NCBI GenBank assembly: GCA_001563335.1
Contig: LRSL01000066.1
Span: forward strand, 1-24,917
Reading direction: 5' to 3'
Length of the DNA: 24,917 nt
Source of the DNA: Candidatus Thorarchaeota archaeon SMTZ1-45
Lineage (GTDB): Archaea; Asgardarchaeota; Thorarchaeia; Thorarchaeales; Thorarchaeaceae
The position numbers and the translations under genes were made by a program. This document shows positions 3 through 24,917 of this stretch, in pieces. Under the pieces are notes generated by a model. The model saw nothing but the letters and a program-made list of their open reading frames with translations, was not told the origin of the DNA and did not search any database. The first letter of the stretch is position 1, and each line of letters begins with the position of its first letter.

Positions 3-2225
3 GTTGAATCGGATAGAATGGTCATATTCAGTGGATGGCCCGACTTGCATTATGAGGGAGTCCGTTACAATGATACATGGACATATGACTATAACAGTAA
101 CACATGGACGAACATGTCACCTTCCTCAATGCCAGTCGGAAGGGGGGCTCACATGATGGCCTATAATCAGAGGGCAGATGTTACGGTCATGTTCGGAGGA
201 GTGGCTGGTTGGCAGGCTGATGATGAAAAAATACTGACCGACACTTGGACATATGATGTCAACACAAATACTTGGACAAACATGTCGCCTGCAAGCAACC
301 CGACTCCTAGAGTTGCCGCCGCCATGGCATATGACAATGAGTCTGACATAATTGTGATGTTTGGAGGATGGTTACCGGATTGGTCAGCAAGTGATGAGAC
401 CTGGATATACAACCTTACGTCGAATACTTGGACAAATGTCACCACGGGTAGCCAGCCCGAAGCTAGGTTCTATGGCAATTTAGTCTATGACTACAAAAAC
501 AGCCGGCTCTTGCTAGTTGGCGGAACTAACTGGGATGGGCTACTTCATGATATATGGGAGTACAATTATGGTTCGAATATATGGACAGAGATACTAGCCA
601 CTAATGAAGCTCCGGTCCCCGCGGTTGGTATGACTTATGACTCGGAGTCAGAACTAATTGTTGCCTACGGTGGTCCTATAGACCTTAGTGAAGCTGTATT
701 CGTCACAGAAACGTGGACATTCAATCTTACCTCAAGACAATGGAATAACACATGGTCACAAAACAACCCTAGAGAGCGGAGCAGACAATACTTGGCCTAT
801 GATATAGAGTCAGACAGAACAATAATGTACGGTGGCGCGCTTCCTAGTGGTCAGCAGGGAGAAGCAATTGGAGACACATGGGCTTATGACTACAGAGTAA
901 ATGAGCCACTTTTGATACCTCCTCCGCCAGAGGATCTGGATGTTTCACCTGATAGCACTAGTCTTATTGTAACATGGAACCCTCCGGCTGAATCTGAGGG
1001 CTTCACAATCACAGGATACAATGTCTATAGGGGTACAGAACCTGGAGTCTTTGAACTATATGCAGAACTTGGAAATGTACTAAGTTTCACTGATTTGAGA
1101 GTTGGCTTTGACATAACCTATTATTATGTTACCACTACGGTTGCTACAACTGGAGAATCAGAAGAATTCTCTAATTCTGACTCAGGATTCCTAGATCTTG
1201 ACCCATATGATGATGGAGTCTACACCTTCATAGCCTATGGTGATACAAGAGCGAGCACAGGTGGTGGAGTGTCTCCTATCCATGATGACTTAGTCAGCAG
1301 GTACCTGCAACTCTCCGACCCTGAAATGATCATTCACACAGGCGATCTAGTGAATCAGGGTGGGGATGCGGTTAATTGGCCACTATATGACGATTCAGTC
1401 TCAGCTACACAAACCTGGGACTCTAACCTGGAAATCTATTATGCAGTGGGCAATCATGAACAATACTCAGGTACTGGTCCTAGTGATGTGGACTTCAGCA
1501 CTTATCGTGACTATGTCGATTTCTCAGACGTAGTAAATGAAATAGAAGGTGAAACTGAACTCTACTATTCATTTGACTGGCAGAATATTCACTTCATCTT
1601 CCTCAATTCAATTGATGGATGGGTTGGAGAAGACTTCATCTGTCCAACTGCTCAGTGGGATTGGTTGGTATCTGATTTTGAAAGAAATGATAAGGAGTGT
1701 ATCATAGTGTCAATGCACAATCCATCATACTCTATTCGAGCTGATAGACCTGACCGATGGACTCAGGCTGCAGCTATACGTGCAGAATTCCATGACCTCT
1801 TCGTAGACAATGACGTGGATATTGTATTTTCAGGACACGACCATCAATACTATCACACATATCGGGATGGAATTGAGTACGTAGTGTCTGGAGGGGGCGG
1901 AGCACCGCTCTACGAAATCGACACAGAAGCACCAGATTGGGAGCCGGGCGATATCGCATTCAGTGACTATCACTATTGTGTCTGTAAAATAACACGGGTA
2001 AATAGCACTCACAGCCGGCTTTCTGTGGATGTTGTAGTAATGGACGGAACAACTCCAGATGTGTTCTATCTTGATTTCTCCGATCCTATTCCTGAACCAA
2101 CAACACCAACAACACCAACAACAACCGTGCCAGATGGATTCCCCATGGTCATGACATTGGTAATCTTGGGAGGAGTAGTAGCAGTCATTGTGATAATAGT
2201 ACTGATTGTTCGACAAAGGAGATAA
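3..2225 (+). CDS. Membrane-anchored extracellular Kelch-repeat + FN3 + calcineurin-like metallophosphoesterase (5'-truncated by the window edge)
   Basis: The frame is open upstream of ATG18 (VESDR-M matches the repeat consensus YDxESD), so the true start lies outside the window. Six Kelch-like repeats are visible (AYDxESDxxxxFGG...DTWxY...NTWTN...PxxR). An FN3 domain follows (PPPPEDL...IVTWNPP...ITGYNVYRG...YYYVTTT...GES). Metallophosphoesterase motifs: YGDTR, HTGDLV, VGNHE, VSMHNP, SGHDH. Ends in a P/T linker, a hydrophobic helix and RQRR. Confidence 0.9.
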   Translation, partial: VESDRMVIFSGWPDLHYEGVRYNDTWTYDYNSNTWTNMSPSSMPVGRGAHMMAYNQRADVTVMFGGVAGWQADDEKILTDTWTYDVNTNTWTNMSPASNPTPRVAAAMAYDNESDIIVMFGGWLPDWSASDETWIYNLTSNTWTNVTTGSQPEARFYGNLVYDYKNSRLLLVGGTNWDGLLHDIWEYNYGSNIWTEILATNEAPVPAVGMTYDSESELIVAYGGPIDLSEAVFVTETWTFNLTSRQWNNTWSQNNPRERSRQYLAYDIESDRTIMYGGALPSGQQGEAIGDTWAYDYRVNEPLLIPPPPEDLDVSPDSTSLIVTWNPPAESEGFTITGYNVYRGTEPGVFELYAELGNVLSFTDLRVGFDITYYYVTTTVATTGESEEFSNSDSGFLDLDPYDDGVYTFIAYGDTRASTGGGVSPIHDDLVSRYLQLSDPEMIIHTGDLVNQGGDAVNWPLYDDSVSATQTWDSNLEIYYAVGNHEQYSGTGPSDVDFSTYRDYVDFSDVVNEIEGETELYYSFDWQNIHFIFLNSIDGWVGEDFICPTAQWDWLVSDFERNDKECIIVSMHNPSYSIRADRPDRWTQAAAIRAEFHDLFVDNDVDIVFSGHDHQYYHTYRDGIEYVVSGGGGAPLYEIDTEAPDWEPGDIAFSDYHYCVCKITRVNSTHSRLSVDVVVMDGTTPDVFYLDFSDPIPEPTTPTTPTTTVPDGFPMVMTLVILGGVVAVIVIIVLIVRQRR
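2097..2123 (+). repeat. (CCAACAACA)x3 coding tandem repeat, PTT-PTT-PTT linker
   Basis: Three perfect 9-bp units read directly from the sequence, just before the C-terminal TM helix. Confidence 0.9.
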
Positions 2226-3541: not shown

Positions 3542-4930
3542 ATGAAGAGTAGAAGGTCCACATTATTTTTCCTATCTGTTTGTATAGTGGTCCTACTACT
3601 TGGTGTGAGTACTGAAGTGGCGTACCCGACTACCTATGATTCAGGAATAGTCATTCATCAAAAGGAGTATAGTCTTTCTTCATCTCTTGAGCAATTTGTT
3701 GAAAATAATCTTTCAGATGTGGATGGTCTAGGATCGTTGGGAACCCATTCGAATTTTGCTAATCAACAAGCTGGACCTGATGCCACATATGATACACTGA
3801 ATGAAGAGAACACTGAACCAATCGCAACAAATGTAGAGGATGATTATGACAGTTATGTTAGTGATGTTGATTCATCCCCAGATGTTGGCGTGGAAACAAA
3901 TCCAACAAACGCACAGGGCGATTCACTTGATTCTCTGTACATGACACTTCAAGAGGTGGAGGTAGGAAGCCCCTATCAATCGACATGGCTTGATACAGAT
4001 CAGTATGACGGATTGGTTGAAACGGGTGTCACCAATTTTGGAACATCTCCATATCTTGATGCTCAAGACTATCCTACAAACTATATGACAACAAAAGCTC
4101 CGGGTTCGCAAGGTGGATGGTGGCATTTCCCAAATACAACATTGACCGGAGAATTGTCAATAAATGTATCCCTCTATTGTTGGAATCTAGATGGAGCCAA
4201 TGATGATGGTTTTGACATATATTATGACACATCTGGTGGACCCGGCACACTCTTGGGAAGAGTCGCACAACACACAGTGCAACAATATGATACATTACAA
4301 ATCTCTGGAACCTTTACTCAAAGTCAGGTAAATTCTCTTCGAATAATGCTCGTATTCTACAAGACTGGTGGCACAAACAATGCATATGCAGACCATCTTC
4401 GAATTGGAGTGAGTTCACCCAAGGTGATAAACTACGAGGCAGATTTCGAGTATAGCTGGAGTACAGCGGATAACGACGAAGGTCATGAGGAAGTATGCAT
4501 CAACATTGGATCTTTTATTGGAACAGAGGCACTAAATGTTAGTTGTTGGAATGGAATTAGCTGGACTCAATTAGGACAGATTACAACCTCTGGCTGGACA
4601 AATCTCACAGCAACTGGGTTGACTTCAACATCATATACAATCAGAATTAGAGGTGCAGAATCCATTGAAGATGCTGTGCAAGAAACATGGACAATTGACC
4701 TCATCACACTTCATACATGGAGTGACCAAACATACAATTACGAGCTGGATTTGGAGGTTCAATGGATCAGTGCTTCGTTTGATAACAACAATGAGTTCCT
4801 CTGTATATATGCAGGAAACACAGATTCCGAAGATTTGGTGGTTGAAGTCTGGGACGGTGCTGGCTGGACAAATGTACACTCAGATTTGCAGGCAAACTCT
4901 TGGAATAATATCAGTGTAAAGCCTCATTGA
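3542..4930 (+). CDS. N-terminal fragment (signal peptide + beta-sandwich tip domains) of the giant surface protein, terminated by a frameshift
   Basis: Sec-type N-terminus MKSRRS + hydrophobic FFLSVCIVVLLLGV. Two pairs of internally duplicated segments (SDVD...TLxE twice; NYExDxExxW...C...W twice). The last segment stops abruptly at WNNISV|KPH*. Confidence 0.8.
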   Translation: MKSRRSTLFFLSVCIVVLLLGVSTEVAYPTTYDSGIVIHQKEYSLSSSLEQFVENNLSDVDGLGSLGTHSNFANQQAGPDATYDTLNEENTEPIATNVEDDYDSYVSDVDSSPDVGVETNPTNAQGDSLDSLYMTLQEVEVGSPYQSTWLDTDQYDGLVETGVTNFGTSPYLDAQDYPTNYMTTKAPGSQGGWWHFPNTTLTGELSINVSLYCWNLDGANDDGFDIYYDTSGGPGTLLGRVAQHTVQQYDTLQISGTFTQSQVNSLRIMLVFYKTGGTNNAYADHLRIGVSSPKVINYEADFEYSWSTADNDEGHEEVCINIGSFIGTEALNVSCWNGISWTQLGQITTSGWTNLTATGLTSTSYTIRIRGAESIEDAVQETWTIDLITLHTWSDQTYNYELDLEVQWISASFDNNNEFLCIYAGNTDSEDLVVEVWDGAGWTNVHSDLQANSWNNISVKPH

Positions 4931-4943
4931 TGATGGGAGCTTC

Positions 4944-7900
4944 ATGTATGCACGAGCTCGTGACTATCTCATCACTGCCAATGTGTCAGATCAAGACGGA
5001 TATACGGACATTCAGAATGTTCGGTTCTCTTTATACTCAAATGATAGACTCTCCTTATATTGGACTGTTGAATATGATGAAGATACAGACTCATTCAGCG
5101 AATATGAGGATCCGTCAGATTATATCACCCTAGATGCGATCTCCTCAGGTGCCTTAAGGTTGGGAAATGACATTGATATTACATTTCATATTACAATTGA
5201 ATGGAATCACCCTGATGTTAGTAATACGGATGTAGAGTGTATTGTTATTGACAGTAAGGTGGAGAACAGTACAGCTTGGTTTGAAGTGAATTGGAATATT
5301 GAAACACGTCTTGATGTAACGGGAATTAATGCTGACGACAATCTTGGAACCGTTGACAGAGGTGACTTGGATAGCCAATTCTTCATTTCTGGAACTGTGA
5401 CATATTATGGTTCAATTCTCAATCCCCCAACTAATGAGGTAGATGTGTGGGTTTCTAGTTCTGAGTATGGAACAAACATTGGACCTTGGATAGACTCCAC
5501 ACTTGAGTCTGGAGTCTTCAATGCATCATGCTTTTCAGATAATGAAGTGGGTATAGACACACTTACAGTAAAGGTCGTTGAGAAAGGTGCAGGTTTTGGT
5601 GGAACTGACCTTCTCTACACAAGTATAGTGGACACTTACATTGCAGACCGCATCGAATTTTACGATTCTGGAGTAGATGATTCTCGAATTGATGTCGATA
5701 CAATGGGATTAACTCTATGGAGTACACGCTATCAGTATGATTCTCTCTCAATCACTAGTGGGCTATCAGCAACCTTGAATGGCTCTAAAGGTCTATCTTG
5801 GAATGGTTCTCATTGGATATTCCAAGAGAGTAAGAGTACAGTGCAAGCTGTTGGATACTCCATCGAATCAGCTTATGAAACTACACATGGTCTTAGTATT
5901 TGGACACAAACATCAGCCAACACTACAATCATTTGGGATCGTATACGAATTTTGACTACTACGACTCAGGATGGAAGGATAAACCATGGCACGTCTGCGG
6001 ACATTCGAGTCACAGCAGAGTTGGAATATGATGGTCATCTATTAGGGTCTGGAGATACCCTCTACATGAATGATACAGTTATGACGTGGGTTAGTTCATA
6101 TTTCCAATTGCAACCGCAATTCTCCAAAGTTGGTCTGTGGATATTTTATGTGAACGCATCTGGAGCCATAGAGATAACATTTGGAATCACAGCAGTCTTC
6201 ATTGATGGGAACCAAATTGACCAAATATGGGACAGAATTTTGATAGTAACCACAACTGCCACAGATGCTAGAATTGACTATGGAACGAGTACAACTGTAA
6301 ATGCGACTGCTCAACTTGAGTATGATGGAACACCGTTGGGAAGTGGGGACACCCTTTACATGAATAATACTGCAATGATATGGGACGTAGACCATTTCTA
6401 TCTTCAAACTGGTGTATATTCAATGGTGGGTCTATTGAATTATTTCATGAATGCATCAGGTGCTCTCGAAACGACATTTGGCATCAGTGTTATGCAATCG
6501 AATCCTATCAGTGCAAGTGTGATTTGGGATCGCATTCTAATCATATCCACTTCTTCTCAAGACTCAAGGATAGACTCTGGTGTTAGTGCAGACATAAGAG
6601 TAACCGCTATCTTGGAGTATGATAGTCATTCCCTAGGGTTGGGTGATACTCTTTTCATGAATAACACCATGATGAATTGGGTGGGCCCATACTTTAGGTT
6701 CCAACCACAGTTCACCCAAGTTGGTTTGTGGAGGTTCTATGTGAATTCTTCTGGAGCGTTGGAAACCACATATCAAATCACTGCAATCAATCTAGCAGGA
6801 TTCTATGTTGATCAAATCTGGGATCGAATAGTGATTTTGACGACCAATACACAAGATGCTAGAATTGACTTTGGCACGTCTGCTGATATTCGAGTAACAG
6901 CTGAACTGGAATATGATGGTCACCTATTAGGGTTGGGAGATACTCTCTTCATGAATGATACAGCGATGACATGGGTCAGTTCATACTTTAGACTACAACC
7001 TCAATTCTCAATGGTTGGAAGTTGGTTGTTCTTCGTGAACTCTTCCAATGTCTATGAAGCAACCTATGGAATATCTGCAGTGTATCTTAACGGGAATAGT
7101 GTGAGTCAAATCTGGGATAGAATTCAATTCTATCAGAGTGGTGTAGTTGACAATCACATAGATGTCGATGCCACAGGTGTCGTTTATTGGAATGCCAGGT
7201 ATGAGTATGATGGCATTGAAATAACTGGTGCAATTTTGACAGCGTCGTTAAATGGCTCAAAAGCTCTTGTTTGGAGTTCAGTTAATCTCCGCTGGGAGTA
7301 CTCTGAGGCAAAGAGCTTGGTACAACTCATAGGGTACAGGATAGATTCAGCATCAGAAACTACCTATGGTCTTTCATCGTGGATCCAAACAGCTGCCAGT
7401 CGATCAATCATATGGGATGAGATTGAGTTCTACTTGTCTGGAGTAGCAGATAACAGGATCAATATCAACACAATTGGTACAACATGGTGGAAGGCAAGGT
7501 ATGCTTATGATAACACCGATATTACCTCAGGACTGACTGCATTACTCAATGGTACGAAAGCACTTACTTGGAACGGAGGGTCAACATGGTGGGAATATGG
7601 AGAGGTGCTTTCGATAGTTCAATCTATGGGATATGGTTTGGTGAGTGCCTCTGAAACACTTTATGGTCTTACGAGGTTTAATCAGCTTGCTGGCAATACA
7701 AGCATCATTTGGGACAAAATAACCGTCCAATCGACTAGTGTTGATATTAATCATCTCGATGTAGGAGCGCTTGCTCAGATTCGAGTGACATTGTGGCTTG
7801 AGTATGACCACACATTTCTCAGCAGTGGTGACTCTGTGTTCACCAACGACACTGCGATGACATGGGATGAGGGTAATGGTTGGTTTGGTCTTGATGTTGC

Positions 7901-10900
7901 ATTTGGGGCTGTTGGAAAGTGGACCTTCTTTGTGAATTCAACACTTGAATCCACTTATGGAATAAGCGAGCTTGACCTGAATTCGTTAAGTGTAGATGTT
8001 ATCTGGGATAGAATACTCATACTCTCGATTTCAGTTGATGACTCAAGAGTGAATGTAGGAGACACTGTTGAGTTGAATATAACTGCCAAGTTAGAATATA
8101 CTGGGAATGGTGATCATTACCTTGGGTTAGGGGATACTCTATACATGAACGGAGTTGCTATGACCTGGAGTATTCCCAACAACTGCTTTGTCTATAGTAC
8201 CTCTCAGTCCTCTGTGGGTCTTTGGAAGTATTATGTGAATTCCTCAAATGCTTATGAAACAGATTATGGAATATCAGTGGTAAACTTGGATTTGAATATC
8301 CAAGGTGTCATTTGGGACCAGTTAGTAATAGATATTCAAGCAGATGTTGAGTATCTCCTAAATGGCTACCAGGCAAACTTCACATTGAGTGTCATCTTTG
8401 ATTACGACAATGGTGTTTGCACAACTTATGGGGTTTCAATTGCTCGAAATAACACTGATTGGTTCACATTCACATATTTGAATAGAACACTATTCAATGA
8501 TACAAATTCCGATTCGTCCTATCTGTATAATGCCTCATCTGTCCTATATGAAACATTATACGATGTTACATTGTTCATAACTAATACAGAAGCTGTCAAT
8601 TGGACTGATTACATCCCAATAGTTCCTGTCAATGAAGCTCCTCCGAACCTCATTAATCCTGATGACACAGACAACATGTATGCACGACTTCGATATTATA
8701 TTATTACATCCAATGTTTCAGATTCAAACGGGTTCGAAGATATTCGCTATGTTTCACTTCTCCTATTTAGTGACGATAGGGGAACTAACTATTGGACTGT
8801 GACATTCATTACAACTAATTCTTCATTCTCCATCAAGAATGGTTCATCCTACATTTCTCTTGGTCCATGCACTTTTGAACATGCAGATACATGGTTGAAT
8901 ATCACATGGTATATCAAGATCTCATGGAATCATCCGGTTTTATTAGATGTGGATACGAAACAATTTGTTAGCAATACTTTTACAACTGCAAGCGATTGGT
9001 ATGAATCTGATTGGGATATAGAAACGCGACTAGACTATTCCGAACTTCCATACCTAAGTTCTGAACGTGGAGATGTCGATACTAATGACTTGGTGGCTGA
9101 AGGAGCAATAACTTACTATGCATCCACTCTCTATCCCTTGACCAATGAAACCGATTTTTGGATTATCCATGATGTATCAGGTTCTTGGTCAGGAGAGGTC
9201 AATGGTCTAGGAGATCTTACAATAACTGGCATCGGTTCTTCATCATTAGTGCGAATGAATACCTATACTTTCAAGATAGTGGCTCAAGGTGATGGTCCCA
9301 CTGGAACAGATCTATACTATGATACTTCTCCCACAGACACTTTCATCACTGACCAAATCGAGTTTTACATATCTGGAGTTAATGACGGGAGAATAGATGT
9401 TGGAGCTACTGGAACCACCTACTGGGTATCCCGTTACGATTACGATGATGTAGCAATATCATCAGGTTTAACAGCGTTCCTCACAGGTTCAAAAGCACTT
9501 AGCTGGAATGGTACACACTGGGTCTACTCAGAAATCAGACCGGGAGTTGAACTTCAGCAATATGGAATCCTCTCTGCCTCTGAAACATTGTATGGATTAA
9601 CTGCATGGATCCAGACTACCTCAGATGCATCAATAATCTGGGACCGTATCTTGATCACTTCAACAACAGCAAATGACAACAGAGTCAATATCAATTCAAA
9701 TGTCGAGCTCTATGTCACAGCTCAATTAGAGTACGACGGCCATCTGCTTGGATCTCTGGATACACTCTATATGGATGGTGTTCAGATGACCTGGGATGGT
9801 GGGGAACTACGATTCGAACTAGTAAGGTCCCAGATATCGGTTGGCTCTTGGAGATATTTTGTAAATGCATCTAATGGATTAGAATCGACTTATGGCATTA
9901 CTGTGGTAAACCAAGATGGATTGTACCAGGATATTATCTGGGACAGGATAACAGTACAGATGACATTGGCTGATGATAATAGAATCAACATCAACGATAT
10001 CGTTCAGATTCGCGTCACCCTAATGCTGGAGTATGACAGTACCTACCTGGGTTCTGGTGACTCTGTTTTTCTTGCAGACCAAGCGATGTCTTGGGACGCA
10101 GTCAACTCCTGGTTTGAGCTAGATGTTTCGAAGTCGAGTGTTGGATTATGGACTTATTTCGTGAATTCCAGTACTATGAGTACCTATGAAATAACAGAGC
10201 TATTCCTGAATGGCATGGAGGTTGATGTAATCTGGGATAGAATCCGAATTCTTACAACCTCCGCAGCAGACGGTCGTATAGATTATGGGTCATCAACTAC
10301 AATCTCTGTTACAGCTGAACTCGAATACGATGGCCACTTTCTAGGTGCGGGAGATGTTCTATACCTCAATGATACTCAGATGGTTTGGAGTACCGACCAT
10401 TTTGAATTAGTCACTGGTTCCAATTCAATAGTGGGATTACTCTCCTATTTTGTAAACTCATCTAATGCCCTTGAATCAACCTATGGTATCACATTTGTGA
10501 ATCGCAACAGTCAGGCTTCTGGTGTCATCTGGGACCGTATCAGGATTATCACTACAACCACCCAAGATGGCAGAATAGACTATGGATCAGCTGCAGATAT
10601 TCGTGTAACTGCATTCCTAGAATATGACAGTCACATACTAGGATCCGGGGATATTTTGTATATGGATGACAGTGTGATGATTTGGGTTTCTAGCTATTTC
10701 CAATACCAACCAATTAGAAATGAGGTTGGATTATGGAGATATTTTGTAAACTCATCTAATGCCCTAGAGGCAACATATGGAATCTCTGTGGTGAACCTTG
10801 ATGGCAAAACGATTGACCAGATTTGGGATAAGATTCTAATTCTCACAACATCCACACAAGACGGAAGGATAAACTTTGACACCCAAGCTGATATTCGTGT

Positions 10901-13900
10901 AACAGCGCAGCTTGAGTTTGATGGCCACATGCTTGGCGTAGATGACACACTCTACTTGGATGACACTCAGATGACATGGGTTGGTCCATTCTTCCAGCTC
11001 CAACCTCAGTATGCACAGGTAGGAAAATGGGTGTTCTTTGTCAACAGCTCAAACGCCTACGAGGACACCTATGGCATCTCTTACATTAATCTAGCAGGAC
11101 ATGATATAGAACAGATTTGGGACCGCATTCAAATATCAACGACAGTTGCAAATGATAATCGAGTTGATCTTGGAACAATTGTCACAATATCAGTCACGGC
11201 TCAACTCGAATATGATGGTCACATACTTACAGGAAGTGACACACTCTATCTTGATGATATTCAATTAAACTGGAACACAGATCACTTCGAGTATCAGACC
11301 TCCAAATTATCAGTAGGTAGATGGAGGTATTATGTTAATTCTACTCTTGCCAATGAGGTGACTTATGGAATCACGTCTATGAATCCCACAGTTAGCTGGA
11401 CCGATGTAGTCTGGGATAGGATTCTGATTCTCTCAACAACAACTTTGGATGACCATATCGATTATGGCTCATCTGCTATAATATCAGTAACCGCTGTGTT
11501 GGAGTATGATAATCATCCCCTAGGTGCTGCTGATGCATTGTACATGGATAACACAGGAATGACTTGGAATACTGACCATTTCGAGTATCTTCCTTCGAAA
11601 TCAGAGATAGGCCTGTGGCGATATTTTGTCAATAGCTCTAATGCTCTGGAAAATACGTATGAAATCACGCTGCTAAATGTGAATTCAAACTATCAGGATG
11701 TGATTTGGGATCGAATTGAGTTTTATCAATCAGGTGTTGTTGATGGGCGAATCGATGTTAATACAATTGGGGAAACTTGGTGGAGAGCACGCTATCAATA
11801 TGATGGAGTGGAAATAGACAATACCAAAGGGTTCTCTGCTGTACTCAATGGGTCGAAGATCCTTGCTTGGGATGGCGTGGCTGCTCGTTGGCGCTACCAG
11901 GAAAGCTCTGTAAGTGTCCAAAGCATCGGATATGGGATCCTATCAGCTTCTGAATCGGTACATGGTCTCACACAATGGATTGCCACAGCATCTGACTCAT
12001 CAATCATTTGGGACCAGATACTTGTCGTATCATATTCTGCTGATGATTCTAGAATAAATATTAACACTGCATCTTCCTGTCATGTCACACTAATTTTCGA
12101 TTTTGACGATTCATTTGTAAGTGATGGGACAATTTCGATAAATGTTCTTGGTGCGGTCTATTCTGGTTCAAATGGAGTATGGAATTTTGGCGATACTAAA
12201 AATACTGCTCAACTGGTCACATACAACTCAGTTGCGGCTTCAGCTAATGTCCATGGTATAACATCGGTAAACCAGAACTCGCAGACATTGGGTGTTATTT
12301 GGGACTCATTGACAATCACAATAACAGTACTTGATACTAGAATTAACATTGGAACAGTCGCGTCAGTAGTACCTACAGCTATCTATGACTATGATAGTAC
12401 CGCATATGATGGGACTTTACAACTGAATGACACAATCTTTCAGCAAGCCACTCCAGGCGCTCGAGGGTACACGGTGGTGACTGCTTCTGGAGATACTCAT
12501 GGAATCTCTGCTATTCGACAGAATATGGAGGTGAGTTGCATTTGGGATTCCCTCATTGTGACAATTACAGTAGGGGATTCCCGAATCAATGTAGGCGACA
12601 CAGCTTCTGTTTCTGCAACAGCAATCTATGCATTCGATAGCACTCCATTTGATGGAACACTAACTCTCAACGACACAATATTGCAACAAGGATCGGTAGG
12701 TGATAGAGCTTATACGGTGGATTCAGCGAGTGGGGATACCTATGGTATCACCGTAATTAGTAGTAATTCCGTGAAAGTTGTAGTATGGGATAGACTACGA
12801 TTGTTTAGTTACTCAGTGACTGATAGTAGATGCGATTTAGGTTCGATTCAAGAAGTCACAGCTTTCATAATACGAGAATACGACAATGTAGTGTTTACTG
12901 GTACCATGGGCGCTGTTTTCTTAAATGGGTCAGCAATGGCTTGGGATTCTGTTGACCTCGTGTGGACACAGCTAAGAACATCTGGCATCGTTAGGAAACT
13001 AACATTTAGTGTAAGTGCCATCACTGATACGCAGTACGGAATAAGTGCGATAAGGGACGAACTTCCGAAGCCCTCAATTATTTGGGATGCTTTATCTATT
13101 TCAATCGTAGTTGCAGATAACAGAATAAACATTGGAGATACTGCATCCATCAATCCAGAGGCGGCATATCTCTATGATGGTGCATCATATGATGGCACTC
13201 TAATTCTGAATGATACTGTATTCATGTATCTTTCAGCACAACGACACGGATACAATGTAAGCTCAGCAGTTGGAGATGACAGTTATGGTATCACAGTAAT
13301 TGAGATCAATGATGAGGTATTTTGCATATGGGACAGCCTAACCATTCAGATAACTGGTCCTTCTGACCAACGGATTGACGTGAATACCAATGCATCTGGG
13401 ATTGTTGTAAGTGCTACTTATGACTATGATAGTGCAATTTACGATGGTTCCCTTGTTTTAAACAATAGTGTGTTCAGCTATAGTCCAGCTCAGAAACAAG
13501 GATACACAGTGCTGTTTGCATCTGGGGATGATTCCTATGGTATCACAGCTATTCGACAAAATGCAGAAACCTATTGCATCTGGGACTCGCTTACAATAAC
13601 AATTACAGACCCACTTGATCAGAGAATAAACATTGGCGAGAACGCCAGTGGGATCGTAGTGAGTGCAATATATGATTTTGATGGATTGCCTTATGACGGA
13701 ACTTTGGTCTTGAATGACACCCAGTTTGTTTATCCAACAGTGGGTAAACGTGGATATGAAGTTTTGATAGCTAATGGAGATGATGGTCATGGAATTACAG
13801 CTATATCAATTCATGATGATACATTCTGTATTTGGGATCAACTTAGGATTGACATCCTAGTAGATGGTGCATCATTATACAACGGGCAACAGGCAAACTT

Positions 13901-16900
13901 CACACTCACTATCACATATGATTACGATTCCACATTCTGTACGACCTATGAAGTGGTGATATCCCGAAACAAAACAGTTTGGCATACTTTCACTGATTCC
14001 AACAAGTCCTTGTTCAATGAAATTAATTCCGATGTGAGCTACTACTATAATGCAAGCTTCATCAATTACGAAACTCAGTACGGAATAACAGCATTCTTCA
14101 CAACAACTCAAAAAGTCACTTGGTCGGAAGCACCAAATCAGGTTCCAACAAATGATACTGATTTTCTATCTATGTTGGAAAATCCAGATGATACTGACAA
14201 CATGTATGCTATGTACAGGTTCTATGTTATGACCACCAATGTTAGCGATGGTAATGGCTTTGACATGATAGAATACGTGGAGGTTTCCTTATACGACAAC
14301 TTCCGAAGTCAGGTAGTTTGGACTGTTAGATATACTGTTGCAACGGATACATTCACCATCCAACAAGGATCAGGTTCCATTGTTCTCGCTTCATGGTCAT
14401 CAGCAGTAGGAGTTGGGAATCAACTTGAAATAAAATGGGTCATCAAGATTTCTTGGGACCATTTAGATCTGGCAGACATTGACATTAAACAATTCGTAAC
14501 AGATGGTATTGATACAGACGAAGATTTCTATGAAGTAAACTGGGATGTTGAAACCCGACTTGACTACTCCAGTGTTCCTTCATTGTCTGATGATCGTGGA
14601 GATGTTACTACAGCTAACCTTGTTGCCACTGGCTCAGTGATTTACCTTGGTTCAACTCACAGTCCGCTAGCAAATGAGACAGATATCTGGGTCCTTCATG
14701 ACATCTCGGGAACCTGGAGCGGAAACCTGGTGGCTGATAGCTTCAGTATCTCAAGTGTTGGTTCTTCTACCTCCGTGAGAATGAATACCTACACATTCAA
14801 GATTGTCATTGAGGGGACTGGCGCTGGAGGGACAGATCTCTATCACTCGACCAGCGTGACCGATACCTTCATTACTGACAGGATTGAGGTCTATCAAGCT
14901 GGAGTGGTTGATTCCCGAATTAATACTAACGTAGACTGTGAGGTCTGGTGGAGGGCTCGTTTTGAGTATGACAGCGTTGAGATCCAGGGTGGACTGACAA
15001 TTGAGCTCAATGGATCACGAACTCTAATCTGGGATGCTGGTGACCTCTACTGGAGATGGCAGGAGACCTCGAGCAGTCCGACTTCTGCTGGATTTGATGT
15101 CGTGTCTGCCAGTGAGTCTACCTATGGTCTGTCTGAACTGTCTGTGACTACATCTGTACAGCAAGTCATCTGGGACGCTCTCATCATTACCATTACTGAC
15201 CCTATAGACCAGCGAATCAATATTGGTGAGAATGCGACCGGTATTGTTGTTAGTGCTGTATATGCATACGATGGTGCCGCCTTTGATGGTACACTCACCC
15301 TGAACAACACTGTGTTCAGCTATGCCACAGCTCAGAAACAGGACTACACTGTACAGTTTCTATCAGGTGATACTTATGGCATCACAGCTATTCAGAGCAA
15401 CGATATCACTTGGTGTATCTGGGACTCACTCACCATCACAATAACAGACGCAGCTGACCAGAGACAGAATGTAAATACCAACGCAACAGGAATCTTTGCT
15501 TCAGCAATTTACGACTATGATGGGTCGATATTTGATGGAACACTCACCCTGAACAACACCGTGTTCAGTTATGCTACGGCTCAAAGACAGGACTACACTG
15601 TGCAGTCTGTGAGTGGTGGCGATCATGGCATCACAGCTATCTCATCAAATGCTGTGACCTATTACATCTGGGACTCCTTGACCATCACCATCACTGATCC
15701 TTCAGATCAGCGTATCAACATCAACACTGCAGCAACTGGAATTGTAATATCTGCAGTCTATGACTATGATGGTGCGGTATTTGATGGAACCCTAGGTCTG
15801 AATAACACTCAGTTGATATATGCCACAGCTCAGATTCAGTGGTACACAGTGGCTTCTGCAAACGGCGACTCTCACGGAATTTCAACCATTAACACAAATG
15901 ATGTCACTTGGTGCATCTGGGACCAGATCGTCGTTCTTTCATATCAAGCGAGTGATCCTCGTGATAATGTTGGGGACTATATCTGGGTTGATGTCAATCT
16001 GCAATACGATTATGATGATACACCAGTTATGGATGGTTCGGTGACCATCAATGGATTCGTATTTCAACACATTAACTCAGGAGTCTGGCGACACAATCAA
16101 ACAGAATTGTCTGTCTCAGATATCTCCTTCGATACAGTTTCTTGTTCAGGTAATGTCCATGGAATACAAGAAGTGGATCAAAACTCACAATCTCAACTGG
16201 TCATATGGGATATGCTTACAGTCACAATTACTGTTGATGATAGACGCATTGATGTTGGCACTTCTGCCTTGCTTCAGGTAAGTGCAACCTATGATTACGA
16301 TGGTTCACTTTTTGATGGCATTCTAACATTGAACGATACATTACTTATGCATCAAGAGGTTGGTCGTTGGAACTATACTGTTCTTTCAGTATCTGGCGAT
16401 TCCTATGGTATATCCTTGATTGGTTCGAATGACGAGGATTATGTGATTTGGGACAGATTGTTGGTAATCTCATATTCTATTGACATGGATGATAGTCGAA
16501 TTAACGTTGACGATATTCAGAATGTATACGTTGAAATAATCTATGACTATGATTCAGTCATCTTTCAGGGTATTTTTGGTTTTGTCTACATGAATGGAAC
16601 AGCAATGACTTGGGACCCTGGAAATCAATATTGGTACCGCAGCTATTCGTATAGTACTCCTGTAGGCTATTCATTCCAGGTGTCAGGGATTACAGATTTA
16701 ATACATGGATTATCTGCAATTAGTGAGCAGGTTAGTCCCAAATTCATCATCTGGGACAAACTAAATGTTGTAATAGAAGCAAATACCACAATTGCATATT
16801 TTGGAGATATAGTCAGTTTCACTGTAACTGCAACACGTCAATATGATAATAGTCGAGTTGGCATGTTGACCGTTGAAACTTTGAGGAATGGTACGCTCCT

Positions 16901-18968
16901 TTTCCCAAACAATTTCACTGATACATGGAATGGACCTGGAGATGCTCTCCAGCAATACCTTGTTACTGATGCATTAGATAGCTTGTATGGAATAACAGAA
17001 TTTGACACTCTGATAATTGAGGTGTTCTGGACAGATGCTCCAATAATTAATGTTGAATTTGCTTCTACTAGCGATAGGGATGGACGCACAAACCTCGGGA
17101 CTGTGATCTTTGTCTATTTCCATTGTGTGTGGTTGGAGAATTCGAGTGATGTTGACGCGGGACTCCTGTATGTGAATGATGATCCATATACCATCAACGG
17201 AACAGGATGGGTAGTAATTACCGATTCTAGTTTGGTTGTCGTTCGCCATTGGTGGAATGTAACTAGCGTTGATGCATATGGAGTTAAACTTCTGAAAACG
17301 CCAGCTCCTAAATTGAGTATGATTTGGGACCGAATTGTCGTACAGAGCACTGTAGTAGACGATGCAAGGGTTGACGTATCTTCCAATGCCGAGATTCGAG
17401 TTACATTATTGCTGGAGTACGACAACACGTTCTTTGGAGCTGGCGACTCTGTTATCCTCAATGGCACTGCAATGGCCTGGGATGGTGTGAACTCTTGGTT
17501 TGAACTGACAGTGAGTCACTCTTCTGTTGGTTCATGGACTTACTTTGTGAACTCAAGTTTGGAAACAACCTATGGAATCAGTTTGTTAGACCTAAATGGA
17601 AACAGTGTTAGTGTGATTTGGGACAGGCTGCAGGTCCAGTCATATTCTGTTGGTGATTCTCGGGTCAATATTGGTGATAGTGTATATATTGATGTTTCAC
17701 TAATCTATGACTATGACGATACACCAGTTTCAGATGGAACCATCACTGTGAATGGAATAACAGCAACCCATCAAGGGGCTGGTGTTTGGAGATTTACTGA
17801 CTCTGAAGTTGTAGTTGTGATGAACACCTATAACCTAGTAGCCAGTGTTGGAAATATTTATGGGCTAACCACTGTGGACCAAAACTCTCAATCAGTGATT
17901 TTGATCTGGGATAGATTTGATGTCTATTGGAGTGAAAGAGAAATCCGACGATACGATCTAGGTTCTTCTGTGCAAGTAAAATTCCGAGTGAGATATTCTT
18001 TTGATGAAGTACCATTTACTGACAGCAATGGTAGATTATGGATTAATGATATGGAAGCTTCATTCGATTCGTTTAATCAATATTGGTTTGTTTCAGTATC
18101 CAGTAATGAATCAGCGGAACTTACATTCAATGTGACCAGTATAGATGATGAAACAACAAATGTTCGCGAGATAATTCAAGATAACGATGATGTTGTCACT
18201 TTGATATTTGATACTGTTATCGTTACGTCAGCTGGAGTACGCTTTTGGGATATTGAAACTAATTTACCGAGAGAGGTACCAGCACCAGACACAGTAGATG
18301 TACCAATAGGTAGTAGTGTTATAATTTATTTCGAACTTCGCTATGAAACAGATGAAAGAGCCATTACAAATCCGAATACTGAAGTCTTCATTAATGGTGA
18401 AAGAGCGACATTTAATATCAATACACAGAGATGGGAATGTGTCTTTAATGGTTCTAGCATTGGTGTTGTTAATTATACTATTAGTAAGTTCCTAGACGAA
18501 TATGGACTGACTCAAGTTCAACATGGAACTAAAATACCTAAGGTTGAATGGTACATTCAACCCATCGAAATCCCACCAGAAATTCTTTACATTAGTCTCG
18601 TTGCGGTAGCTGGTTTAACTGCTGGAATACTCGTTAGGAGATCAAAGAAACGAGTGACTGCACTTGAACATGCTCTTACACCTGAAGAACTACTCTCGAT
18701 AGAAGAAGTTGGCATTTCTAGTTCCATGAGAGAAGAAATGGTCACTCAACTTGAGTGGTTACGAAACCTATCTGAAGAGATACCATATATGGGTACTGAC
18801 ATTTTAAGAGTTCTAAATGAAGAAATCTTGAAAGCCAAATTAATGTACACAAAGGCATTTGAATTGGAGCCTCCAACTGAGCATGCAGGCAAGCAACTAA
18901 AAGAGCTGCTACTCGAGCGGATTGATGATATTCTAGAATTAATTGACAAAGAGATGGCACGTCGATAA
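4944..18968 (+). CDS. Giant repetitive single-pass cell-surface (glyco)protein, adhesin-like; main body, 4674 aa
   Basis: 14-kb uninterrupted ORF with ~40 beta-rich repeats of ~83-100 aa delimited by (I/V)WD. Three larger modules contain DDxxxMYA (Met at 4944, 8676, 14202). N-x-S/T sequons are abundant. TM helix at 18582-18635, then RRSKKR and a ~110-aa tail. No signal peptide of its own. Confidence 0.9.
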   Translation: MYARARDYLITANVSDQDGYTDIQNVRFSLYSNDRLSLYWTVEYDEDTDSFSEYEDPSDYITLDAISSGALRLGNDIDITFHITIEWNHPDVSNTDVECIVIDSKVENSTAWFEVNWNIETRLDVTGINADDNLGTVDRGDLDSQFFISGTVTYYGSILNPPTNEVDVWVSSSEYGTNIGPWIDSTLESGVFNASCFSDNEVGIDTLTVKVVEKGAGFGGTDLLYTSIVDTYIADRIEFYDSGVDDSRIDVDTMGLTLWSTRYQYDSLSITSGLSATLNGSKGLSWNGSHWIFQESKSTVQAVGYSIESAYETTHGLSIWTQTSANTTIIWDRIRILTTTTQDGRINHGTSADIRVTAELEYDGHLLGSGDTLYMNDTVMTWVSSYFQLQPQFSKVGLWIFYVNASGAIEITFGITAVFIDGNQIDQIWDRILIVTTTATDARIDYGTSTTVNATAQLEYDGTPLGSGDTLYMNNTAMIWDVDHFYLQTGVYSMVGLLNYFMNASGALETTFGISVMQSNPISASVIWDRILIISTSSQDSRIDSGVSADIRVTAILEYDSHSLGLGDTLFMNNTMMNWVGPYFRFQPQFTQVGLWRFYVNSSGALETTYQITAINLAGFYVDQIWDRIVILTTNTQDARIDFGTSADIRVTAELEYDGHLLGLGDTLFMNDTAMTWVSSYFRLQPQFSMVGSWLFFVNSSNVYEATYGISAVYLNGNSVSQIWDRIQFYQSGVVDNHIDVDATGVVYWNARYEYDGIEITGAILTASLNGSKALVWSSVNLRWEYSEAKSLVQLIGYRIDSASETTYGLSSWIQTAASRSIIWDEIEFYLSGVADNRININTIGTTWWKARYAYDNTDITSGLTALLNGTKALTWNGGSTWWEYGEVLSIVQSMGYGLVSASETLYGLTRFNQLAGNTSIIWDKITVQSTSVDINHLDVGALAQIRVTLWLEYDHTFLSSGDSVFTNDTAMTWDEGNGWFGLDVAFGAVGKWTFFVNSTLESTYGISELDLNSLSVDVIWDRILILSISVDDSRVNVGDTVELNITAKLEYTGNGDHYLGLGDTLYMNGVAMTWSIPNNCFVYSTSQSSVGLWKYYVNSSNAYETDYGISVVNLDLNIQGVIWDQLVIDIQADVEYLLNGYQANFTLSVIFDYDNGVCTTYGVSIARNNTDWFTFTYLNRTLFNDTNSDSSYLYNASSVLYETLYDVTLFITNTEAVNWTDYIPIVPVNEAPPNLINPDDTDNMYARLRYYIITSNVSDSNGFEDIRYVSLLLFSDDRGTNYWTVTFITTNSSFSIKNGSSYISLGPCTFEHADTWLNITWYIKISWNHPVLLDVDTKQFVSNTFTTASDWYESDWDIETRLDYSELPYLSSERGDVDTNDLVAEGAITYYASTLYPLTNETDFWIIHDVSGSWSGEVNGLGDLTITGIGSSSLVRMNTYTFKIVAQGDGPTGTDLYYDTSPTDTFITDQIEFYISGVNDGRIDVGATGTTYWVSRYDYDDVAISSGLTAFLTGSKALSWNGTHWVYSEIRPGVELQQYGILSASETLYGLTAWIQTTSDASIIWDRILITSTTANDNRVNINSNVELYVTAQLEYDGHLLGSLDTLYMDGVQMTWDGGELRFELVRSQISVGSWRYFVNASNGLESTYGITVVNQDGLYQDIIWDRITVQMTLADDNRININDIVQIRVTLMLEYDSTYLGSGDSVFLADQAMSWDAVNSWFELDVSKSSVGLWTYFVNSSTMSTYEITELFLNGMEVDVIWDRIRILTTSAADGRIDYGSSTTISVTAELEYDGHFLGAGDVLYLNDTQMVWSTDHFELVTGSNSIVGLLSYFVNSSNALESTYGITFVNRNSQASGVIWDRIRIITTTTQDGRIDYGSAADIRVTAFLEYDSHILGSGDILYMDDSVMIWVSSYFQYQPIRNEVGLWRYFVNSSNALEATYGISVVNLDGKTIDQIWDKILILTTSTQDGRINFDTQADIRVTAQLEFDGHMLGVDDTLYLDDTQMTWVGPFFQLQPQYAQVGKWVFFVNSSNAYEDTYGISYINLAGHDIEQIWDRIQISTTVANDNRVDLGTIVTISVTAQLEYDGHILTGSDTLYLDDIQLNWNTDHFEYQTSKLSVGRWRYYVNSTLANEVTYGITSMNPTVSWTDVVWDRILILSTTTLDDHIDYGSSAIISVTAVLEYDNHPLGAADALYMDNTGMTWNTDHFEYLPSKSEIGLWRYFVNSSNALENTYEITLLNVNSNYQDVIWDRIEFYQSGVVDGRIDVNTIGETWWRARYQYDGVEIDNTKGFSAVLNGSKILAWDGVAARWRYQESSVSVQSIGYGILSASESVHGLTQWIATASDSSIIWDQILVVSYSADDSRININTASSCHVTLIFDFDDSFVSDGTISINVLGAVYSGSNGVWNFGDTKNTAQLVTYNSVAASANVHGITSVNQNSQTLGVIWDSLTITITVLDTRINIGTVASVVPTAIYDYDSTAYDGTLQLNDTIFQQATPGARGYTVVTASGDTHGISAIRQNMEVSCIWDSLIVTITVGDSRINVGDTASVSATAIYAFDSTPFDGTLTLNDTILQQGSVGDRAYTVDSASGDTYGITVISSNSVKVVVWDRLRLFSYSVTDSRCDLGSIQEVTAFIIREYDNVVFTGTMGAVFLNGSAMAWDSVDLVWTQLRTSGIVRKLTFSVSAITDTQYGISAIRDELPKPSIIWDALSISIVVADNRINIGDTASINPEAAYLYDGASYDGTLILNDTVFMYLSAQRHGYNVSSAVGDDSYGITVIEINDEVFCIWDSLTIQITGPSDQRIDVNTNASGIVVSATYDYDSAIYDGSLVLNNSVFSYSPAQKQGYTVLFASGDDSYGITAIRQNAETYCIWDSLTITITDPLDQRINIGENASGIVVSAIYDFDGLPYDGTLVLNDTQFVYPTVGKRGYEVLIANGDDGHGITAISIHDDTFCIWDQLRIDILVDGASLYNGQQANFTLTITYDYDSTFCTTYEVVISRNKTVWHTFTDSNKSLFNEINSDVSYYYNASFINYETQYGITAFFTTTQKVTWSEAPNQVPTNDTDFLSMLENPDDTDNMYAMYRFYVMTTNVSDGNGFDMIEYVEVSLYDNFRSQVVWTVRYTVATDTFTIQQGSGSIVLASWSSAVGVGNQLEIKWVIKISWDHLDLADIDIKQFVTDGIDTDEDFYEVNWDVETRLDYSSVPSLSDDRGDVTTANLVATGSVIYLGSTHSPLANETDIWVLHDISGTWSGNLVADSFSISSVGSSTSVRMNTYTFKIVIEGTGAGGTDLYHSTSVTDTFITDRIEVYQAGVVDSRINTNVDCEVWWRARFEYDSVEIQGGLTIELNGSRTLIWDAGDLYWRWQETSSSPTSAGFDVVSASESTYGLSELSVTTSVQQVIWDALIITITDPIDQRINIGENATGIVVSAVYAYDGAAFDGTLTLNNTVFSYATAQKQDYTVQFLSGDTYGITAIQSNDITWCIWDSLTITITDAADQRQNVNTNATGIFASAIYDYDGSIFDGTLTLNNTVFSYATAQRQDYTVQSVSGGDHGITAISSNAVTYYIWDSLTITITDPSDQRININTAATGIVISAVYDYDGAVFDGTLGLNNTQLIYATAQIQWYTVASANGDSHGISTINTNDVTWCIWDQIVVLSYQASDPRDNVGDYIWVDVNLQYDYDDTPVMDGSVTINGFVFQHINSGVWRHNQTELSVSDISFDTVSCSGNVHGIQEVDQNSQSQLVIWDMLTVTITVDDRRIDVGTSALLQVSATYDYDGSLFDGILTLNDTLLMHQEVGRWNYTVLSVSGDSYGISLIGSNDEDYVIWDRLLVISYSIDMDDSRINVDDIQNVYVEIIYDYDSVIFQGIFGFVYMNGTAMTWDPGNQYWYRSYSYSTPVGYSFQVSGITDLIHGLSAISEQVSPKFIIWDKLNVVIEANTTIAYFGDIVSFTVTATRQYDNSRVGMLTVETLRNGTLLFPNNFTDTWNGPGDALQQYLVTDALDSLYGITEFDTLIIEVFWTDAPIINVEFASTSDRDGRTNLGTVIFVYFHCVWLENSSDVDAGLLYVNDDPYTINGTGWVVITDSSLVVVRHWWNVTSVDAYGVKLLKTPAPKLSMIWDRIVVQSTVVDDARVDVSSNAEIRVTLLLEYDNTFFGAGDSVILNGTAMAWDGVNSWFELTVSHSSVGSWTYFVNSSLETTYGISLLDLNGNSVSVIWDRLQVQSYSVGDSRVNIGDSVYIDVSLIYDYDDTPVSDGTITVNGITATHQGAGVWRFTDSEVVVVMNTYNLVASVGNIYGLTTVDQNSQSVILIWDRFDVYWSEREIRRYDLGSSVQVKFRVRYSFDEVPFTDSNGRLWINDMEASFDSFNQYWFVSVSSNESAELTFNVTSIDDETTNVREIIQDNDDVVTLIFDTVIVTSAGVRFWDIETNLPREVPAPDTVDVPIGSSVIIYFELRYETDERAITNPNTEVFINGERATFNINTQRWECVFNGSSIGVVNYTISKFLDEYGLTQVQHGTKIPKVEWYIQPIEIPPEILYISLVAVAGLTAGILVRRSKKRVTALEHALTPEELLSIEEVGISSSMREEMVTQLEWLRNLSEEIPYMGTDILRVLNEEILKAKLMYTKAFELEPPTEHAGKQLKELLLERIDDILELIDKEMARR
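5640..18560 (+). repeat. Intragenic array of ~40 degenerate IWD repeats in several subtypes
   Basis: Consensus WD-x(8-12)-DxR(I/V)(D/N)...(E/D)YD...(L/M)N(D/G)(T/S)...(Y/H)GI. DNA-level similarity between segments starting at 5988 and 6873. An identical 26-mer occurs at 10446-10471 and 10740-10765. Three 249-bp units span 15171-15917. Confidence 0.9.
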
Positions 18969-24500: not shown

Positions 24501-24583
24501 AACGGTTGCAGGACCTTGGTGTGAAGAAAGTAACAACCGAAAAATGGATTTTGGATGAAATGGAGTCAGAACGAATCGCATAA
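21508..24583 (+). pseudogene. STAND-class (NB-ARC/AP-ATPase-like) P-loop NTPase with C-terminal TPR array, split by a +1 frameshift
   Basis: ORF 21508-22056 has FVDREE and Walker A GIGGIGKS. ORF 22028-24583 has Walker B LLFLLDHFE, GxP motif SGGNPF, MHD-like FVLHDL and many TPRs (LNNIGNLY, LNNLGALL, LNNLGLLH). The second frame is open from 21953 and reads HIEELLQILWKDPRRAEFLY, so the two ORFs form one gene of ~1020 aa or more. Confidence 0.85.
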
Positions 24584-24641
24584 CCGACTAGCTTATCTAA
24601 AACCTATTTCTATGTCAAGAACTGCGTGTGAGGTCAGGAGT
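24582..24641 (+). promoter_or_regulatory. Conserved promoter/leader module, copy 2
   Basis: The same 22-mer at 24582-24603 overlaps the upstream TAA. TGCGTGTGAGGTCAGGAG lies at 24623-24640. Confidence 0.7.
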
Positions 24642-24917
24642 GTGTACAAGCACTACGAAACGTCTGAAGATGTCTTCGTGGACAGAGAGGAACAGATTAA
24701 GTGGATGAACGATGCTCTTGAGAAATGCAAAGAGAAGAGCGTGGTACTGCACCTCAAAGGAATTGGTGGTATTGGTAAATCATCACTTCTGAACCACTGG
24801 GTCAACACACACGAGAAGACAATTCGTTTGGATTGTGAACAAAACTCAGATTTCTACCAGCGTTTAAACGTGCTTGCGAAAGGAGCTGTTCTACAATGAG
24901 TCAAGCTTCATAGGTTC
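24642..24917 (+). pseudogene. Second STAND ATPase paralog, nonsense-disrupted, running off the window
   Basis: GTG24642 aligns with ATG21508, with 11 aa differences over 85 codons. CAA-TGA-GTC-AAG aligns with CAA-GGA-GTC-AAG, and homology continues after the stop (VKLHRF vs VKIQRF). Confidence 0.85.

Follow-up and report, generated by a model that had tools for sequence, protein, structure and literature searches.

Domain insertions occur in 20% of multidomain proteins and can build up A1-B1-C-B2-A2 nests, according to PMC13114784. The same paper describes the Si3 region of the cyanobacterial RNA polymerase beta' subunit (rpoC2) as eight domains in a 6-level recursion with bifurcating nodes. 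Recursive insertion is already known; the archaeal case described here is new and unannotated. Searches of the literature for nested or Russian-doll insertions in jelly rolls, carbohydrate-binding modules (CBMs) and Asgard proteins yielded neither this archaeal family nor any nested CBM-like domains.

The window (the whole stretch of 24,917 nucleotides from Candidatus Thorarchaeota archaeon SMTZ1-45 that was analysed) carries a head-coding ORF of 462 aa at 3542..4930 (+), and a second ORF, 4944..18968 (4674 aa), begins 13 nt downstream in a different frame. In the shorter ORF, the first-pass annotation had noticed two similar short segments (X), a unique core and two similar longer segments (Y). 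It had proposed that each X pairs with a Y to form one jelly-roll-like domain, that a copy of this domain is inserted in its own loop and that the core is inserted in the copy. The parts of the gene are the following:

3542..3616, + strand: probable signal peptide, residues 1-25; MKSRRS, then a hydrophobic stretch, presumably cleaved
3689..3814, + strand: a1, outer X, subtype xA (X HMM match 50-90; subtype score xA +64); first ~42 residues of the putative outer jelly-roll shell, pLDDT 88-92, short beta bridges
3836..3961, + strand: b1, inner X, subtype xB (X HMM match 99-139; subtype score xB -70); first ~42 residues of the putative inner shell, where the CBM86 and CBM29 alignments begin (95-97)
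3974..4426, + strand: core, innermost inserted domain, a CBM-like jelly roll by structural match to CBM36 7ay3
4421..4720, + strand: b2, inner Y, subtype YB (Y HMM match 294-393, 123 bits, profile positions 2-100; subtype score YB -66); remaining seven strands of the putative inner shell, where the CBM86 and CBM29 alignments finish (393-395)
4727..4924, + strand: a2, outer Y, subtype YA, partial (Y HMM match 396-462; subtype score YA +49)
4924..4925, no strand: break point, where ~143 nt (48 codons) are absent, giving TGA at 4928-4930 and a frame change
4925..18968, + strand: continuation of the gene, a repeat-rich stalk, called as ORF 4944..18968 (4674 aa)

Segments of the head and their fold

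The repeat order was examined by local alignment against 2000 shuffles. The a1/b1 alignment scored 50 (shuffled 22.0 +/- 4.3; z 6.5) and the b2/a2 alignment 105 (shuffled 28.6 +/- 5.3; z 14.5), scores reached by 0 of the 2000 shuffles in either case, whereas the four X-Y pairs all fell at z -0.7 to 0.8 and showed no similarity in the same test. Because X resembles X and Y resembles Y but X does not resemble Y, the X-X-core-Y-Y order is real, and it lies where the first-pass annotation had placed it. The core, expected at ~150 aa, measures 155 aa (residues 141-296) and is flanked by a1 (50-91) and b1 (99-140) on one side and by b2 (297-393) and a2 (399-459) on the other. The extents of the segments also held, with one correction: a2 covers only positions 2-65 of the 100 in the Y profile, because the window sequence breaks at 4924|4925.

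An AF2 model of the 462-aa ORF, built from a 40-row alignment, reached a mean pLDDT of 86.6 and a pTM of 0.57. It starts with a helix at residues 5-21 and a low-confidence linker at 23-42, and its X segments (pLDDT 88-93) contain short strands and bridges only. When the model was compared with known structures by VIA-align, the CBM86 chain 6sgf_C (131 aa) aligned over 122 residues (rmsd 2.9, Z 10.4, range 97..395) and the CBM29 chain 1wcu over 119 residues (rmsd 3.0, range 95..394). Both ranges run from the first residue of b1 to the last residue of b2, spanning the core, and both aligned lengths exceed the ~100 residues held by b2 alone. Rows that genuinely cover two domains have an rmsd of 11-19 in VIA-align; the low values found here (2.9-3.0) therefore argue that the match is not spread over two separate domains. 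Judging from these ranges and lengths in the model, X and Y would pack against each other in the window protein. When b1 (93-142) and b2 (294-395) were entered as two chains in a complex prediction, ipSAE was 0.00 and 0.02, a result that we take as evidence in neither direction.

The core forms a match of its own. Residues 148..292 of the model align with CBM36 7ay3 (Z 10.9, 119 aligned, rmsd 3.0, VIA-align), and residues 145..295 also match CBM6, CBM35, MAM and Eph ligand-binding domains. For CBM36, CBM6, MAM and Eph, the alignment with this insert takes in the entire domain, with Z of about 10-11, and as modelled the core is an autonomous CBM36-like jelly roll. Its orientation, possibly pointing away from the fibre, is less certain, since a pTM of 0.57 leaves the placement of the domains in the model uncertain. 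Foldseek searches with the ORF model returned tandem jelly-roll proteins, namely reelin repeats, tandem CBM22, tandem CBM51 and F-lectin; the top matches were reelin (6a48, E 6.7e-6), with low whole-model TM-scores of 0.15-0.20. A Pfam search with E values of up to 1 found 0 families in the 462-aa ORF, and Pfam gave no relevant family in 10 homologs.

If X and Y belong to one domain, they might be found side by side in relatives, and the first-pass annotation had suggested a search for such homologs. They exist. P0072 (293 aa) consists of X, a 6-residue linker and Y, a contiguous unit of type xA+YA, and adjacent X and Y also occur inside P0198 and P0106. A model of P0072 (pLDDT 85.9) was compared with 48,161 chains: residues 155..293, which correspond to X+Y, match CBM86 6sgf_A (Z 11.0, 119/129 aligned, rmsd 3.1), and residues 153..293 match CBM29 1wcu (Z 9.7, 116 aligned). 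The same two modules thus match X+Y of P0072 and the window from b1 through b2. X+Y is therefore one ~140-residue CBM-like jelly roll, as had been proposed and as these models bear out, and in the window this domain is interrupted after X.

The remainder of P0072 places the domain on another type of surface structure. Residues 17-152 match the Pyrobaculum type IV pilin subunit 8fk7_A with Z 11.6. In P0072, P0009-P0021, P0157 and others, the nest follows an archaeal type IV pilin domain (Pfam Pilin_N) in the same chain, and these proteins would be pilins with lectin-like heads.

Bracket order in relatives

Nesting can be read like a text with brackets. We took each X as an opening and each Y as a closing bracket, using an X profile of 42 positions and a Y profile of 100 positions; a split Y was merged, and half a Y at the end of a protein scored as a Y. 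The sample comprised 213 proteins, made up of 73 homologs from a whole-ORF search (the window's own protein left out) and 140 new proteins from the best 150 of the 554 representatives matched by an X-only profile. Because these proteins are related and were collected via X or the whole ORF, the counts do not represent independent events: 127 of the 213 proteins form balanced words, 55 have an excess of X and are still legal prefixes, 9 have an excess of Y and are still legal suffixes, 22 are ambiguous solely through a weak partial Y-profile match inside the core, and none of the 213 violates the bracket rule. Most of the excess-X proteins stop only a few residues after their last match and are therefore probably fragments cut off at contig ends. 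In the exceptions, a long C-terminal flank follows in which no Y was detected (P0079, 198 aa; P0174, 405 aa; P0209, 382 aa), and P0128 and P0212 likewise have long C-terminal flanks. P0054 fits only if degenerate X copies, visible by eye alone, are counted.

The balanced words are (()) in 74 proteins, () in 24, (()()) in 9, ((())) in 3 and (((()))) in one (P0078), together with (()())(), (())(), ()() and variants with a split Y. The deepest word, six levels, was found in one protein, P0076, which has six X, a 133-aa core and six Y. P0219, with 7 X and 7 Y, forms a balanced branched word; it is full-length and shares a cluster with P0075, a fragment that has six X. To judge by the names given to the homologs, the domain family occurs in Thorarchaeota, Odinarchaeota, Bathyarchaeota and Thermoplasmata.

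Two further arrangements were seen. A second insertion site lies inside Y, where 140-200 extra residues split the profile at about position 31-39 (P0070, P0084, P0107, P0147, P0150, P0177, P0189 and P0211). Paralogous heads with one X, a core and one Y are also encoded elsewhere in the genome of the window, within open frames of 1424 and 591 aa, at G000:C32:7243-11160 (L002, L003, L006) and G000:C46:17495-20614 (L004, L005).

Subtype profiles were trained on 19 X-X-core-Y-Y proteins, with the outer X as a, the inner X as b, the inner Y as B and the outer Y as A. The test set consisted of 110 balanced proteins that had played no part in the training, and only Y matches of at least 80 positions were considered; it excluded the window protein itself as well as P0018, which nearly duplicates a training row. 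In these 110 proteins the subtypes agree in 210 of 211 bracket-matched pairs, the one discordant pair being in P0132, with a weak score of -8. The subtype words are aaAA (34), aA (28), abBA (18), bbBB (9), aaAaAA (9), bB (3) and single cases that include baaAAB. All mixed words are mirrored, abBA in 18 proteins and baaAAB in 1, and neither abAB nor baBA was found among the 110. Such a mirror order is predicted by nesting, unlike by independent tandem duplications.

The loop that receives the insertion is not tied to one guest. We collected as cores the segments of at least 30 aa between X and Y from the first homolog set (n=64) and linked them by BLAST at E<1e-5. This divides the 64 cores into 14 groups that BLAST does not connect, of sizes 36, 6, 5, 4, 3 and 2 plus 8 singletons, and range in length from 133 to 445 aa. 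That of P0076 is an F5_F8_type_C domain (Pfam, 35.6 bits against a cutoff of 28.2), and that of P0114 consists of DUF2341 and Laminin_G_3 (Pfam, 75.1 bits), the latter belonging to the ConA-like lectins. Thus, different cores (CBM36-like, F5/8 type C, ConA-like lectin) do occupy the same insertion site, as the first-pass annotation had suspected. Weak Y-profile matches inside some cores (~20 bits) hint at a distant relationship.

To explain this order we propose that the head is a recursive domain-in-domain nest, in which jelly-roll shells enclose a lectin-type core, and we hold this to be very probable. The X and Y counts, the bracket order and the mirrored subtypes all support the nested insertion that the first-pass annotation had deduced from one protein, with a copy in its own loop and the core in that copy. 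Could the segments instead be beads on a string, X a short motif or linker and Y a small beta sandwich, multiplied by two unrelated tandem duplications and sharing no fold? Tandem duplication is the commonest origin of repeats, X and Y have no sequence similarity and tandem six-X arrays do exist (P0048, P0075). However, the complete relatives of these arrays have six or seven Y (P0076, P0219), and a contiguous X+Y models as a single CBM-like domain. Two separate duplications would also have to account for equal numbers of X and Y in 127/213 proteins with the bracket order broken by none, for subtype agreement in 210/211 pairs and for mirroring in 19/19 mixed words, and we regard them as very improbable.

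A different use of the same pieces would be strand donation, in which X fills in the Y sandwich of an adjacent molecule and the nest serves as a polymerisation device. Pilins polymerise, and some members of the family are archaeal type IV pilins, as the 8fk7_A match of P0072 (Z 11.6) and the Pilin_N assignments indicate. Nevertheless, in both models AF2 puts X and Y in one compact domain of a single chain, and the strict matching of brackets within a chain, with its mirroring, is expected for intramolecular pairing and is not needed for exchange. Strand donation thus appears even less probable than independent duplication, and we keep to the recursive nest.

The gene around the break

The head-coding ORF stops where its homologs go on. 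In homologs of 66-76% identity, ...NNISV is followed by WLTSSTFTIRF..., which finishes the second Y, then by a short linker (...SNIDDGS.) and then by the sequence that opens the second ORF of the window. No stop interrupts the frame of this second ORF upstream as far as 4920, and the residues encoded ahead of its ATG are SLIDDGSF, to be compared with SNIDDGSF/Y of the homologs. In a search of 31 genomes, the window turned out to be without residues 461-508 of P0006 and to change frame at that point, and in genomes of the same genus head and stalk lie in single open frames of 3808, 4048 and 3848 aa.

We compared Logan contigs of four public runs over 4600-5300, and no contig in the four runs bridges 4924|4925. 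The contigs of runs X2 and X3 extend 47 and 40 letters beyond 4924, and the first 30 of these translate by hand, in the frame of the head-coding ORF, as WLTSSTFTIR. The contig of run X1, which may be the sample from which the window was assembled, has 124 letters before 4925 that end, also by hand translation, in ...SIDEMPAISN directly ahead of IDDGSF. In these three runs, the loose contig ends on either side of the break thus match the stretch of the homologs that is missing from the window. Because no contig bridges the break and its loose ends code for what the second Y lacks, we conclude that ~143 nt (48 codons) were most likely lost in assembly and that this loss is probably the origin of the stop and the frame change. 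Once it is allowed for, the true gene would be one ORF of ~5,190 codons with a C-terminal membrane anchor.

The break could be real if the organism itself carried the 143-nt deletion; the outer shell would then be broken, and the gene would yield products of 462 aa and 4674 aa or be a pseudogene. The window does show TGA at 4928-4930, followed by an ATG in another frame, and contigs attest to the presence and not to the absence of a sequence, so that a deleted variant may exist. However, the junction is bridged by no contig of the 4 runs, the contig ends of X1, X2 and X3 match the stretch present in homologs and the relatives keep one open frame, which makes a genuine deletion unlikely. A programmed frameshift or a recoded TGA at 4928 was also considered and dropped, because 48 codons are absent and not merely shifted.

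Beyond the break, the stalk ends in a C-terminal transmembrane helix (18582-18635), followed by a tail of ~110 aa. A module that opens with ...DDTDNMYA(R/M).R.Y..T.NVSD is present three times in ORF 4944-18968, at residues 1, 1245 and 3087, and long runs of ~95-100 aa repeats (IWDRI...) lie between the three copies. Pfam gave sub-threshold matches alone in the first 1000 residues of this ORF and none in the last 989. The upstream neighbour at 18-2222 (+) encodes a protein of 735 aa in which Pfam recognises a Kelch beta-propeller and a calcineurin-like phosphoesterase domain. Farther downstream, at 21508-24899 (+), an 851-aa TPR protein lies between AAA_16/ATPase_2 fragments of 182 and 114 aa (Pfam); 22028..24583 begins before 21508..22056 has ended, and this overlap suggests that a STAND-type NTPase-TPR gene has been split or frameshifted.

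The proposed nested head among known systems

How would such a head be built? The region would be the N-terminal head of a giant, C-terminally membrane-anchored surface protein of the Thorarchaeota archaeon. Given the C-terminal anchor, the head would lie at the far end of the fibre, provided that the N-terminal segment is a cleaved signal, as we infer. Each shell would be a ~140-residue CBM-like jelly roll composed of X, with its ~42 residues, two short strands and a helical turn, and of Y, which would supply the remaining ~100 residues and seven strands; the loop between X and Y would accept insertions. The outer shell, a1+a2 of subtype A, would thus host the inner shell, b1+b2 of subtype B, which would in turn host the CBM36-like core. 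For the outer pair, the a1-a2 association is suggested by comparison, from the 210/211 pairs overall and from P0072, where xA+YA models as one domain. We envision a chain that goes out via the X pieces, forms the core and comes back via the Y pieces. Across the family in other archaea, this loop would have been reused recursively, to depths from one to six, with branches and with the second site in Y, and the innermost domain would be exchangeable (CBM36-like, F5/8 type C, ConA-like lectin and others).

The function of such a device may be to display a ligand-binding domain, probably a glycan-binding one, on stacked shells, at a fibre's end in this protein and on archaeal pilins in other members of the family. 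We would give a role in adhesion or glycan binding about even chances; neither a Pfam family nor ligand-binding residues point to glycan binding by the window core.

If the proposal is correct, it defines a new domain family without a Pfam model, whose X/Y shells will be missed by domain finders that expect contiguous domains. It would account for the heads of giant surface proteins in Asgard archaea, and for those of some archaeal pilins, as lectin-like shell stacks with an exchangeable tip. It would also point to cell-cell or cell-substrate recognition, in organisms whose contact biology draws wide interest. In the family, host domain and loop stay the same while the depth goes from 0 to 6, a natural series in which the folding of discontinuous domains and the limits of recursion can be tested; if true, the self-inserting jelly roll is a ready-made natural scaffold for such studies. 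Finally, the comparison flags a probable assembly error that made one gene into two.

The nearest relatives in fold are the CBMs. The shells resemble CBM29 and CBM86, with Z of 9.7-11.0 over 116-122 residues, and the core resembles CBM36, CBM6 and CBM35, although shells and core lack Pfam membership and share only 6-20% identity with their structural matches. Because Z values of ~10 also fit MAM and Eph domains, only the fold class is established by these models and sugar binding is putative. Reelin presents another likeness: in its order of subrepeat A, EGF and subrepeat B, jelly-roll sandwiches pack against one another while a further module separates them along the chain. The subrepeats of reelin are complete domains, none of them split, whereas the segments that flank the core in the window are domain halves, and no EGF or other Pfam match was found there.

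At the level of the whole protein, the closest likeness is to giant fibrillar adhesins with a ligand-binding tip, which the archaeal protein would resemble in its probable signal peptide, a repeat stalk of thousands of residues, a putative C-terminal anchor and a distal lectin-like domain. From its hydrophobic N-terminus, its 4674-aa repeat ORF and its C-terminal transmembrane segment, the window protein would be secreted, anchored and adhesive. Its tip would differ from that of fibrillar adhesins: instead of a simple terminal domain, it would consist of discontinuous domains nested in one another.

The architecture itself is closest to Si3 as described in PMC13114784. In both, a domain repeatedly hosts its own kind in a loop, and the archaeal family is equally deep and also branches. 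The folds and settings differ: Si3 is built from the hybrid-motif/HABAS fold and belongs to a cytoplasmic enzyme, whereas the archaeal family uses a CBM-like jelly roll and forms the extracellular head of fibres and pilins. Unlike Si3 in that description, it carries an exchangeable lectin-type innermost domain, and its depth varies from 1 to 6 among relatives. We lean, by a modest margin of confidence, towards a general view of the family: a jelly-roll loop that takes copies of itself without apparent limit would give a self-similar two-stranded stalk, which evolves by cassette insertion and displays exchangeable lectin domains on fibres and pili. Among the published cases found, this would be the second natural six-level recursion of a single fold after Si3, and both its place on a cell surface and its swappable payload would be firsts.
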